Program-made: the position numbers and the translations under genes | Part shown: piece after piece, positions 12,054 through 14,436 of the stretch | Position numbering within the stretch: position 1 is the first letter of the stretch | How the letters are laid out: each line of letters opens with the position of its first letter | Notes under the pieces: generated by a model | What the model saw: only the letters and a program-made list of their open reading frames with translations | Databases searched by the model: none | Told to the model about the DNA's origin: nothing | From: an uncultured virus (IMG/VR IMGVR_UViG_3300024270_000055) | Taxonomy: Duplodnaviria; Heunggongvirae; Uroviricota; Caudoviricetes | DNA: 20,000 nt | Virus record (IMG/VR): IMGVR_UViG_3300024270_000055 | Direction: 5' to 3' (one strand)

Positions 12054-12821
12054 TTAGCCTGCGGCTGCTGTACTTTGGTTATTGCAGCAGCAGTAACTCG
12101 TAACACCTGTAACGGTGGGAGTAAGCGGCAATGTATTGACACCCTTGATATTGCGACAATCAAGTCTATCAACATAGTTAATTACCTTTTCCAGACCTTG
12201 ATTCAACTTACACATGATGAGTTCATCTTGGTACGGTCTAACAGCCGAATTGATAGCCACCTGTGCCTTCAAGTCGCAAAGTTCCTTCTTGATTTCATCG
12301 TCCTTGTCACGAGTGTACTTGTACTGAGAGAACAATTCATCGTTGATACGGTTGTTCACTCGGTCAATGTTGTCTCGGTTGTCCTTGTACAAGTTGAAGT
12401 CTGCTGTGATTTGGCTCTGATACAAACCGAACTTTTCAGCAATGTCGGTGTTGCGTTGAGCAGCCAACAATTCCAATGTGTTCACCTTCTGACCCCACAA
12501 TGTGTTAGTGAGCTTCAAAACGTCGTCACACTCATGTTGGTACACCTCAAATGTAGTAGGAGCGACACAACCGCCACCCAAGCCACCATTGATGTTTACG
12601 TTGGTCGGAACACCGCTTGAAGAACCACCGCCGCCAAGCAAATTACTAAGACCACCACCATTACGATTCCATAAGCTAATAAGCCCCAAAGCAGTACCGG
12701 CTATGCCGAAGCCCAATGCAGTTCCTGCTTTAGCTCTTGTAGAATCATGACCATAGCCATTGTTGTAGCTACCATAGTTTTCTCCGCACTCACGGATAAA
12801 GCTACCTTGTTCTTTAATCAT
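12054..12821 (-). CDS. conserved gut-phage hypothetical protein: Gly-zipper hydrophobic segment, coiled coil, Cys-rich tail
   Basis: GTALGFGIAGTALGL; AEKFGLY..Q..ADF.LYK; RPYQD; LP.TPTVTG..SYCCC. Confidence 0.85.
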   Translation of the reverse strand: MIKEQGSFIRECGENYGSYNNGYGHDSTRAKAGTALGFGIAGTALGLISLWNRNGGGLSNLLGGGGSSSGVPTNVNINGGLGGGCVAPTTFEVYQHECDDVLKLTNTLWGQKVNTLELLAAQRNTDIAEKFGLYQSQITADFNLYKDNRDNIDRVNNRINDELFSQYKYTRDKDDEIKKELCDLKAQVAINSAVRPYQDELIMCKLNQGLEKVINYVDRLDCRNIKGVNTLPLTPTVTGVTSYCCCNNQSTAAAG

Positions 12822-12905
12822 AACTTTAAAGATTAATAATTAAACATACACAGCCTTCGTTGGCTGATATGCAAAGAACTTGATAAGTCCGTGTAAGGGA
12901 AATCA

Positions 12906-12963
12906 GTTTGTGGATGGTTCGTGGAAAGTTTGTAGACTTTCCAATTTGTAAAGTTTTGGAATG
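12906..12963. repeat. 11-bp phased direct repeats, candidate operator
   Basis: GTTTGTGGATG / GTTCGTGGAAA / GTTTGTAGACT at 12906, 12917, 12928 plus two degenerate copies. Confidence 0.7.
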
Positions 12964-12981
12964 AAATGAAGAGTTTTGGGA

Positions 12982-13076
12982 TTAAGTTGATTTTTATTTC
13001 AAAAGTTTAAACTTAAGTTGATAGAATCTCCAAAAGTTGATAACTTAAGTTGATTTTTATTCCAAAAGTTGATAAC
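12982..13076. repeat. three tandem 31-32 bp repeats
   Basis: TTAAGTTGAT-n8-CAAAAGTT...AAC at 12982, 13013, 13045. Confidence 0.9.
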
Positions 13077-13134
13077 TTTTGATTGAGAAACCATCTTTTT
13101 GATTTAATCTTTTGATTTTCATGAAAACTCAATC

Positions 13135-13165
13135 AAAAAAAAGCGGTGACAATCCGTCACCACTT
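13135..13165 (-). terminator. intrinsic terminator
   Basis: AAGTGGTGAC-GGATT-GTCACCGCTT then U-tract on -. Confidence 0.85.
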
Positions 13166-13337
13166 AGAAACTCCTTCAACAGCTTGGTTGATGAGATGCA
13201 CATGGATGTCAGCTCCATGCAAACTTCCGACCTTACGATTCGGCACACCATTTGAGCGTCATTCCCATTATCAAGCGGGATGATAAGCTTGTGTGGAGTT
13301 ACGTTGAGCCAAGTTGCGCACCTTTGCTCTTCACATG
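13135..13337 (-). ncRNA. candidate ~200-nt structured RNA
   Basis: Promoter TATATTTG at 13342-13349, multi-hairpin body, terminator; the only ORF spans both promoter and terminator. Confidence 0.55.
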
Positions 13338-13351
13338 GATGCAAATATAGT

Positions 13352-13382
13352 AAAAAAAGGCGTACCTACAAAAGATACGCCC
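13352..13382 (-). terminator. terminator of hicAB
   Basis: GGCGTA...TACGCC stem with U-tract on -. Confidence 0.7.
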
Positions 13383-13416
13383 AAGTGGTATTATAAAGGT
13401 AGCCTCACGGCTTAAA

Positions 13417-13824
13417 TTAAACTGTAATGCACATCATTTCTTCCGCTAGAGTTCTTAATCCGCTTGCAATCTTTTCAGATTGCCGTTTTCTAGGTTTGCT
13501 TCGACCTGCCGCATAATGCGCTAGCTGCTTTTGATTAATCCCCGTAATATTCTCCAATGCAGAATAGGAGAATATACCTTGGTAGAACTGCAATAGGCTT
13601 TGTACATCAAACTTGTACTCTAATTCATAGTCTTCATCAAATACAGACGGATAGGCAATACCGTCCTCTTTAGCACAATCAATATAGAATTGTATACTTT
13701 CAATCACCTCTTTCTTAAATTCGGAGAAAGAGCCAGAGCAAGCAACAATCCAATTGGGAAGGAGTTCACAATTTCCACTATATCCCCTTTCCGTTTTAGC
13801 TGTTGTGATAGTTACTTTTTTCAT
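13417..13824 (-). CDS. hicB: HicB-family antitoxin with C-terminal HTH
   Basis: N-terminal HicB-like region, ALENITGINQKQLAHYAAG..KPR HTH; directly downstream of hicA. Confidence 0.88.
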   Translation of the reverse strand: MKKVTITTAKTERGYSGNCELLPNWIVACSGSFSEFKKEVIESIQFYIDCAKEDGIAYPSVFDEDYELEYKFDVQSLLQFYQGIFSYSALENITGINQKQLAHYAAGRSKPRKRQSEKIASGLRTLAEEMMCITV

Positions 13825-13874
13825 TGTTATTTCGCTTTATACATAAATGCCTCTTTTCAAGAGAACGGTCTGGG

Positions 13875-14072
13875 TTAGAAAACTAACCCCGACTGTTCTT
13901 CAATACTGCTTAGCAGATTTCCCCATACATCATCAGAAGGATGTCCGTTAACTGTAACAGTCCCCTTTTTTGATGGATGCTTGAATTGGCGATGGCTGCC
14001 TTTTTGCCTTGCAATGTACCAACCATCCTTTTCAAGCGTCTTAATAATTTTGATAACCTTTATTACCTTCAT
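13875..14072 (-). CDS. hicA: HicA mRNA interferase toxin
   Basis: LEKDGW...RQKGSHRQFKHPSKKGTVTV. Confidence 0.95.
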   Translation of the reverse strand: MKVIKVIKIIKTLEKDGWYIARQKGSHRQFKHPSKKGTVTVNGHPSDDVWGNLLSSIEEQSGLVF

Positions 14073-14097
14073 ATTTAATACCACTTGAAATACAATG

Positions 14098-14150
14098 CAA
14101 AGATAGTGATTTTACTATTATTTGCAAAATAATTCGTAGTAAATTTACTA
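14098..14150 (-). promoter_or_regulatory. hicAB promoter with two palindromic operators
   Basis: TATCTTTG 14098-14105, TTTG 14125-14128 (19-nt spacer); TAGTGATTTTACTA 14104-14117 and perfect palindrome TAGTAAATTTACTA 14137-14150. Confidence 0.8.
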
Positions 14151-14429
14151 TTAATATGCAGAATTTTTCAATTCCTTGTACATTTCCTTCAATCCCCACC
14201 TAAATTTACACCTCTCATGAAAACTGTTCCTAGCCTTGTTAACTAGAGCTACACTCCAGCCGCTAATCTCGGCTATCTGCCTGTCTGAATACCTTTCGCT
14301 TAGTACGGCGATAACCAAGTATCTGGCATCTACACATTCCTCTTGATGGGAATTGCACACTTTCCCCTCCGAAAGTTCGGTCATTTCACACACTTTCCCT
14401 AGGATGGAATCAAAATAATCTCTTTTCAT
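14151..14429 (-). CDS. stand-alone DnaA domain IV/TrpR-like HTH protein
   Basis: IL..VC....L....V......ECVDARYL....L....SDRQIA...G.S...V pattern parallels DnaA C-terminal domain. Confidence 0.7.
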   Translation of the reverse strand: MKRDYFDSILGKVCEMTELSEGKVCNSHQEECVDARYLVIAVLSERYSDRQIAEISGWSVALVNKARNSFHERCKFRWGLKEMYKELKNSAY

Positions 14430-14436
14430 AAACAAA

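Follow-up and report, generated by a model that had tools for sequence, protein, structure and literature searches.

In the type III toxin-antitoxin (TA) system ToxIN, the antitoxin ToxI consists of 36-nt repeats in tandem, which the toxin processes, and phage pseudo-ToxI or captured ToxI RNAs neutralise ToxN. Another system of this type is AbiF (Abi_2/HEPN), an abortive-infection module whose RNA antitoxin is described as the abiF motif (10.1101/2025.04.15.648962). According to the same report, the C. difficile RNA RCd22, with two abiF motifs, neutralises AbiF by direct binding in cis and in trans, and stem-breaking mutations abolish this neutralisation. Reviews present Prevotellaceae AbiF as a type III TA system in which the non-coding RNA (ncRNA) blocks the HEPN active site, and AbiF as the ancestor of Cas13. 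The stretch analysed here (20,000 nt in full, referred to as the window) comprises bases 3398-23397 of the 26.3-kb IMG/VR virus record IMGVR_UViG_3300024270_000055, an uncultured gut phage of the Caudoviricetes whose record has an estimated completeness of 34%. Its genes are of the Bacteroidota-phage type (GH108 endolysin, HTH_3 + M78 regulator, GIY-YIG homing endonuclease, DUF7841). On the minus strand, the window appears to hold the gene of a phage-borne small RNA (sRNA) of ~200 nt, a composite and toxin-less RNA whose central hairpin is, through its homologues, a diverged relative of abiF RNA, and which may serve as an AbiF decoy.

Several phage-borne RNAs offer points of comparison. Pseudo-ToxI is likewise a toxin-less phage RNA of antitoxin type for which a block of an abortive-infection TA system is the proposed role; the element described here differs in that a single hairpin motif is embedded in a composite RNA, and in that it is known from sequence alone. 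Lactococcal phage sk1 carries a cos-region hairpin that protects against AbiF and is said to be unlike the AbiF ncRNA (PMC13064643). The two elements share a phage-borne location and AbiF inhibition (here proposed), whereas the RNA in the window is homologous to AbiF ncRNA. Racrs, the solitary CRISPR-repeat mimics described in viral genomes (PMC10651486), resemble it as viral orphan copies of a defence RNA acting as decoys, but concern another defence system and another RNA, and the function here would be analogous only by inference. A cyanophage paper lists an abiF RNA in an entry that gives no function (PMC9964418). Orphan phage abiF RNAs were not found described as anti-defence elements in the literature consulted; the primary paper on Prevotellaceae AbiF (Zilberzwige-Tal et al. 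2025) may already treat phage copies.

The comparison set consists of three distinct sequences, namely the window and two metagenome contigs, L073 and L075, which come from a protein-anchored scan of metagenome contigs with a 94-aa open reading frame (ORF) located upstream of the RNA (37 loci). Both contigs carry a homologue at the window's syntenic site (79% over 151 nt in L073, 76% over 133 nt in L075). In both, the central hairpin matches the Rfam family RF03085, the abiF RNA (AbiFr or RCd22), at 38.7 bits, above the gathering cut-off of 37 bits (L073:898-931 and L075:2159-2192; E 1.2e-5 to 1.5e-4). The central 24 nt of this hairpin equal the consensus of RF03085, and its outer stem is altered yet paired. 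An earlier note on this DNA had proposed a multi-branched structured RNA at this position and could not name its family; for the central hairpin, the family can now be assigned. On this comparative basis the hairpin is kin to abiF RNA, a case in which less diverged homologues reveal the family of an apparently novel, Rfam-negative RNA.

The window's own copy is more diverged. It gives no match to RF03085 at the gathering cut-off and none at E <= 10, whether 701 nt or 91 nt are searched, and the whole of Rfam yields only chance-level matches in the window at E <= 10 (fstAT, miRNAs, CC0734), all far under their cut-offs. The elements of the abiF consensus structure outside the loop are kept: the outer stem CACAC 13295-13291 / GUGUG 13248-13244, the unpaired A 13290, the inner stem AGC 13289-13287 / GCU 13257-13255 and the 6-nt 3' bulge CAAAUG 13254-13249, for which the family has CAAAUN. 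The apical loop departs from the model, reading UUAUC, 18 inserted nt and AAUGAC instead of CUCUCAACGAU, with four substitutions. The conserved apical loop of 11-12 nt (CUCU....AU), kept in 8/8 Bacteroidales examples and in 35 viral examples, is not encountered in the window. The insertion allele is not a one-off, as it also occurs without indels in contigs of runs X19, X21 and X12, which show at least two further alleles of the RNA.

The Bacteroidales examples define the canonical arrangement. RF03085 matched in 8 of 151 sampled Bacteroidales genomes, five times over the cut-off. A TAnnTTTG-type box lies 10-15 nt upstream of the motif and a U-rich stretch follows it in 8/8, and an Abi_2 gene then follows in 6/8. 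The locus in the window has the same promoter type and differs in that no abiF gene follows and that the motif sits within a 200-nt RNA with four extra hairpins and no direct U tract. Abi_2 (PF07751) gave 0 matches in the 26.3-kb record, itself 34% complete, while the control search was positive in B. thetaiotaomicron. Consistent results came from tblastn, with no Abi_2 in the window's record or in the available L073 and L075 flanks, and from blastx, with no Abi_2 coding remnant downstream of the motif.

Toxin-less copies of the motif also occur elsewhere among viruses. The exact 23-nt motif core was found at 35 loci on IMG/VR viral contigs (L148-L182), with Abi_2 within 2.5 kb at 4/35, so that 31/35 are orphans without Abi_2 nearby. 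This count comes from Pfam scans of the 23 loci with a downstream ORF of at least 120 aa starting within 700 nt (12 have none) and from tblastn over all 35. The contrast with Bacteroidales is indicative only, as the latter sample was drawn by covariance model and the viral one by exact core. Outside the motif, the 35 viral abiF-type RNAs are unlike the window RNA. Genes for tRNA are present at 14/35 of these loci, and nine have the motif no more than 60 nt from a same-strand tRNA, where it looks like part of the tRNA array transcript. In two loci (L168, L174), a gene for a family B DNA polymerase is preceded by a tandem pair of motifs.

The boundaries of the RNA follow a pattern familiar from Bacteroidota. 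The Bacteroidetes promoter consensus is reported as TAnnTTTG at -7 and TTTG around -33 (PMC7366714), and intergenic sRNAs of this phylum are recognised by their own TAnnTTTG promoter together with an intrinsic terminator; the window RNA has both, as consensus matches. Intrinsic terminators stand on both sides of it, at 13382-13358 (after hicB) and at 13165-13141. In the window, TANNTTTG occurs 33 times against 20.7 expected, a count reached by 1/200 shuffles, and TAT[AC]TTTG boxes lie directly upstream of several minus-strand genes. The 94-aa ORF ends in the same -7 box in L073, L075 and a further related locus, L004. Contigs of two RNA libraries from two studies (X19, X21) cover 13227-13337 at a depth of 4-13; contigs of this kind reveal neither transcript ends nor strand, and their source could be DNA. 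Public runs were placed on the region as contigs only, and stretches without cover in four runs (e.g. 12909-13211) are uninformative.

All minus-strand helices listed in the earlier note are present: AACTCC 13300-13295 / GGAGTT 13174-13169, TCATCCC 13283-13277 / GGGAATGA 13266-13259, ACGC 13259-13256 / GTGT 13248-13245, CCGAATC-GTAA-GGTCGG 13243-13227, GCATGGA 13220-13214 / TCCATGT 13206-13200 and TCAAC 13191-13187 / GTTGA 13180-13176. Together they form exactly the minimum-free-energy structure from the predicted start, in which the AACUCC/GGAGUU pairs have a probability of ~0.8. This fold is, however, no more stable than those of shuffled sequences (z-scores against 200 shuffles): the window scores z -1.44 (17/200 shuffles as stable) and, in a second folding, z -1.32 (18/200), and its antisense strand scores z -1.99. 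Since the fold is thermodynamically unremarkable, a structured RNA cannot be shown from the window alone. The L073 homologue reaches z -2.76 in sense (0/200 shuffles) and z -1.47 in antisense, with the sense strand 11.8 kcal/mol better.

Comparison with L073 and L075 separates the helices that are kept from those that are not. The hairpins at 13243-13227 (P3) and 13221-13199 (P4) are conserved, whereas the other listed helices find no support. The TCATCCC hairpin is the 18-nt insertion, missing from L073 and L075, and under the abiF fold TCATCCC/GGGAATGA becomes an extension of the motif's apical loop; the ACGC/GTGT hairpin cannot coexist with the fold established for abiF RNA in this segment. 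The closing helix AACTCC/GGAGTT and the TCAAC hairpin fall in the 3' third, which is not homologous among the relatives. The best-supported helix, GAGC..GCUC (13329-13306), was missing from the earlier list and is here called P1. Across the three sequences, two of its pairs show changes on both sides with pairing kept, and the closing pair of P4 changes from G-U to A-U. This covariation has low power, the count of two pairs being equalled by 64/500 column shuffles. A 10-nt repeat, CATCCATGTG, does occur at 13341-13332 and again at 13208-13199, but neither the multi-branch fold as a whole nor the alternative pairing suggested for this repeat is conserved: the 5' copy is imperfect in L073 and missing in L075.

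The element is real and non-coding. An encoded small protein, either the 71-aa ORF at 13344-13129 or an inner 40-aa ORF starting MVCRIV, has a next to negligible probability. Although the 71-aa frame is open in the window and the length of the 18-nt indel is divisible by three, the frame contains a stop in L073 and is shifted by a 1-nt deletion in L075, and it passes through the terminator. The inner ORF measures 40, 23 and 34 codons in the three sequences, and 4/4 codon differences between window and L073 within it alter the residue (read by eye). Codon-level conservation, which the earlier note had named as grounds against a structured RNA, is absent. The 71-aa ORF has no Pfam or PHROG match, a search of 5.8 billion protein clusters at 39-125 aa gave no relative, and no antisense frame is conserved across the window, L073 and L075.

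Conservation is concentrated in a core of 116 nt, identical at 104/116 positions to L073 and at 102/115 to L075 (89-90%). The adjacent 94-aa ORF is 77-80% identical overall, with third codon positions at 0.58 (L073) and 0.48 (L075). In L073, the promoter box TATCTTTG overlaps the ORF end and is followed by the RNA and its own terminator; in L075, a small inserted ORF precedes the RNA. The 3' third and the terminator are entirely different between the window and these two relatives, with a hairpin and an own terminator in each. L073 and L075 share their 3' part, identical at 93/93 positions despite 77% in the adjacent ORF, and this points to an RNA that moves between phages as a cassette. The RNA-library contigs extend this picture. 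X19 is identical to 13335-13227 and divergent on both sides, departing right after the GNRA hairpin, while the X21 contigs cover 13337-13234 with four differences and join 13337 or 13332 straight to 14186, 14168 or 14356, bypassing the hicAB cassette that lies upstream of the RNA in the window (13332->14168, 13337->14186). On the evidence of these contigs, the 5' half of the element is present in other phage backgrounds and hicAB (~14168-13351) was inserted later and has no relation to the RNA.

Beyond this set the element is rare. It occurs as a single copy in its own record, and blastn against 50,697 phage GenBank records gave zero matches. Exact patterns returned one identical truncated IMG/VR contig and five chance matches in unrelated phyla for the P3 hairpin, 0 viral and 13 chance genome matches for the linker, and the identical contig with 27 chance matches for P4. 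A covariance model of the three sequences (R1) recovered only these three across 67 sources, with zero matches in 26 prophage loci, one genome and the 151 Bacteroidales genomes; in the 35 abiF-bearing viral loci its matches were confined to the motif. An origin as attP or as a host-gene fragment was also considered and rejected, with no tRNA or tmRNA, no host match to two invariant 17-18-mers and an atypical position. The features are collected in Table 1.

Table 1. Predicted RNA element, its parts and its neighbours (window coordinates)
Feature	Position	Strand	Basis or remark
TTTG, candidate -33 element	13369..13372	-	sequence and the consensus reported in PMC7366714; within the hicB terminator loop
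TATATTTG, Bacteroidota sigma-ABfr-type -7 box	13342..13349	-	consensus match only
predicted RNA, ~200 nt	13133..13337	-	start predicted 5-7 nt past the -7 box; U tract taken as the end
P1 hairpin GAGC-A-AAG [ GUGCGCAA ] CUU-G-GCUC	13306..13329	-	pair probability 0.9; octaloop invariant in three sequences
diverged abiF-type hairpin	13244..13295	-	L073/L075 counterpart is the RF03085 match
18-nt insertion in the abiF-type hairpin (apical loop), forming the tip of the TCATCCC/GGGAATGA hairpin	13264..13281	-	alignment gap columns 51-68
P3 hairpin, GUAA tetraloop	13227..13243	-	invariant between window and L073, L075 without one loop base; probability 0.95
P4 hairpin (G/A)CAUGGA-7 nt-UCCAUGU	13199..13221	-	kept in three sequences; probability 0.8-1.0
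P5 hairpin CUC-A-UCAAC..GUUGA-AG-GAG	13171..13195	-	allele-specific; an unrelated hairpin there in L073/L075
intrinsic terminator of the RNA	13133..13165	-	11-bp stem (13165-13141), then U tract
hicA-hicB cassette with own promoter and terminator	13351..14168	-	818 bp; insertion separating the 94-aa ORF from the RNA promoter
94-aa helix-turn-helix (HTH) gene marking the syntenic site	14151..14435	-	relatives in 37 metagenome loci

We tentatively favour, at somewhat less than even confidence, an orphan phage sRNA of antitoxin type, serving as a decoy for AbiF and present here as a diverged allele. The start of the RNA would be set by a TAnnTTTG promoter of the Bacteroidota kind, which in the original layout shared sequence with the 3' end of the 94-aa HTH gene, and its end by a terminator of its own. 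It would form a string of hairpins, namely P1, the abiF-type hairpin, the GNRA hairpin P3, P4, the variable P5 and the terminator. As the phage shows no abiF gene, this toxin-less RNA can be regarded as an orphan mimic of the antitoxin. Produced in the course of infection, or by an induced prophage, it could keep the host's AbiF inhibited as the labile antitoxin RNA of the host runs out, and the additional hairpins would lend it stability or other functions. Transcription, AbiF binding and the anti-defence role are all predicted from sequence. The window allele, with its loop altered and its stems and 3' bulge kept, may be either retargeted or weakened, and the decoy reading is less sure for this allele because it is the loop that has changed, with P1, linker, P3 and P4 left almost invariant.

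A number of observations weigh against this interpretation. The window's own copy fails RF03085 even in the 91-nt search at E <= 10, and it alters loop positions (CUCU...AU) that are constant in the eight Bacteroidales examples. Between the window and L073, conservation within the core is lowest in the abiF-type loop; the near-invariance of P1, linker, P3 and P4 points to function elsewhere in the RNA, and a second function may exist. The stability of the window fold does not exceed that of shuffled sequence, and covariation amounts to two pairs in three sequences. The high identity could stem from recent cassette transfer instead of selection. Transcription is a prediction here, the RNA-library contigs being low in depth and possibly DNA. 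Finally, with a record of such limited completeness, Abi_2 may lie elsewhere in the phage, and the presence of AbiF in the phage's host is an assumption.

The same features could be explained by decay. A relic of a lost AbiF TA cassette, with the toxin gene deleted and a neutral or decaying RNA remnant left behind, is consistent with the broken motif in the window and its failure against RF03085, and the site is a hot spot that takes TA cargo, including two kinds of hicAB; identity among carriers would then be a product of recent transfer. Nevertheless, neither blastx nor tblastn finds an Abi_2 coding trace downstream of the motif. In canonical Bacteroidales loci the motif follows the promoter after 10-15 nt and is succeeded by a U tract, whereas here it is flanked within the RNA by P1 and P3-P5, hairpins with no counterpart in canonical loci. 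The non-motif hairpins are moreover 89-90% conserved, P1 covaries, and the insertion allele persists in at least three different contexts. A relic is, on balance, unlikely.

A different role would follow if the abiF-like hairpin were incidental or structural. The RNA could be a trans-acting base-pairing sRNA carried as a phage moron, regulating mRNAs of the host or the phage by pairing through the linker CAACGUAACUCC and the P1 loop GUGCGCAA, both of which are invariant in the three sequences. A promoter followed by a terminator is the architecture of high-confidence Bacteroides intergenic sRNAs as reported in PMC7366714, and the window RNA resembles these RNAs, of which GibS is one, in its TAnnTTTG promoter, its terminator, a length in the 100-200 nt range and hairpins with conserved unpaired stretches. 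It has no sequence or Rfam relation to them, is phage-borne and is confined to a few related phages. Candidate phage mRNA targets were pursued and discarded, as seed-duplex scans and the 76 start regions gave nothing better than shuffles. The best seed duplexes are weak, with no outstanding phage target, and the best duplex with the start regions is equalled by 58% of shuffled RNAs; an exact 24-nt identity to the abiF consensus would also be unexpected for an unrelated sRNA. This explanation is regarded as quite unlikely.

The upstream transcript could instead own the RNA. As a structured 3' untranslated region of the 94-aa gene or of an inserted ORF, it would stabilise and terminate the mRNA, an arrangement compatible with L073, where the ORF runs into P1 with no terminator between ORF and RNA, and with L075, where the RNA follows the small inserted ORF and has no TAnnTTTG box directly upstream. 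In the window, however, the hicB terminator separates the RNA from the upstream genes, yet the RNA is intact. The relative L072 ends the same gene with a simple hairpin, and stabilisation leaves 200 nt at 90% identity with an abiF motif unexplained. These considerations make a 3' untranslated region improbable.

The earlier note had left open a stand-alone phage ncRNA or an attenuating leader, and only the former holds: the element is non-coding and syntenic, with a promoter-like box and a terminator. A cis-acting leader, attenuator or riboswitch controlling read-through into the downstream operon would suit an RNA that lies upstream of a long minus-strand operon and ends in a terminator, and canonical abiF RNA is described as also acting in cis on its own gene (10.1101/2025.04.15.648962). 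Yet the RNA is missing from 30/30 other loci of the downstream 255-aa gene (0/4 in L004-L007 and 0/26 in Bacteroidales-type genome bins) and from 35/37 loci of the upstream 94-aa gene. The downstream gene is served by a conserved promoter region of its own, marked by tandem boxes, and in the window ~200 nt of repeats separate it from the RNA. Terminators and 3' thirds differ among the homologues, with no conserved alternative pairing, switching sequence or terminator/antiterminator switch, and the 10-nt repeat is not conserved. A cis-regulatory role is thus very improbable.

The neighbourhood of the orphan sRNA shows how the site is built. The hicAB cassette encodes a recognisable HicA (HicA_toxin, E 8.8e-20) and a hicB-like gene of 135 aa without a family match. 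Homology with L004 and L073 breaks at the ends of the cassette, and L073 and L075 contain the RNA without hicAB. The position between hicB and an operon, to which the earlier note had drawn attention, is correct, but the link to hicB is accidental, since the cassette is a later insertion upstream of the RNA promoter. An RNA associated with hicAB was considered and dropped, none of 57 loci with hicB relatives containing the RNA. The promoter of the cassette is TATCTTTG, and the insertion falls exactly after the codons ...KEL of the 94-aa ORF, replacing its original C-terminus.

Compared with L004, the window has extra DNA between the conserved 94-aa ORF and the conserved promoter region with tandem boxes. 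Other relatives carry nothing at this position (L072), another and unrelated hicAB pair (L074) or other ORFs (L005, L076). Judged from these layouts, cargo of various kinds enters at this hot spot, TA modules included. In L004 (630-715), it holds a promoter-to-terminator unit of ~75 nt with a TATATTTG box, a hairpin GCTAAAG..CTTTAGC and a terminator, perhaps another small RNA. The 94-aa family matches HTH_23 in 14/18 members and, weakly, Bac_DnaA_C in 9/18 (best E 0.0019, under the cut-off), and it has an invariant EECVDAR motif.

Further downstream, two tandem 11-nt boxes at 12906-12927 (TTTCCACGAAC / CATCCACAAAC) are kept in L004, L005 and L072-L075 upstream of a TTTG-only promoter, of which they look like operators; we take them to resemble DnaA boxes. 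Between the RNA terminator and this promoter, at 12979-13073, lie three 32-nt direct repeats with ATCAACTT half-sites and a perfect palindrome AACTTAAGTT, ~16 nt apart, which are missing in L073 and L004 and may represent operators, iteron-like sites or a repeat RNA. A 5'-untranslated-region hairpin (12851-12866, CAGCC-aacgaa-GGCTG) precedes the 255-aa gene by ~30 nt. Its L004 counterpart, CGACC...GGTCG, is changed on both sides and L072-L075 have other hairpins there, a structure conserved with variable sequence. The gene itself (12054-12821, minus strand) encodes a glycine-rich protein. Contigs of the two RNA libraries cover its relatives at very high word depth (~175-1900), and many genome bins of Bacteroidales type contain such relatives too, frequently immediately behind a relative of the 94-aa ORF.

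Recent work has identified AbiF as a type III system and likely ancestor of Cas13, and phage escape from it is barely known, with one hairpin, that of phage sk1, on record. If the decoy reading is true, an antitoxin hairpin without its toxin would be a direct form of counter-defence, and would be to AbiF what pseudo-ToxI is to ToxIN and RNA anti-CRISPRs are to CRISPR systems. A broader proposal, which we consider doubtful rather than probable, is that orphan abiF-type RNAs form a widespread and unrecognised class of phage anti-defence elements, with AbiF decoys that are solitary, tandem, placed in tRNA arrays or, as in the window, grafted into a larger, stabilised sRNA, and that the window allele is a retargeted or cleavage-resistant product of an arms race. 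In the small sample of viral contigs, exact copies of the motif are mostly orphans and many lie in tRNA arrays, and the phenomenon may therefore be general.

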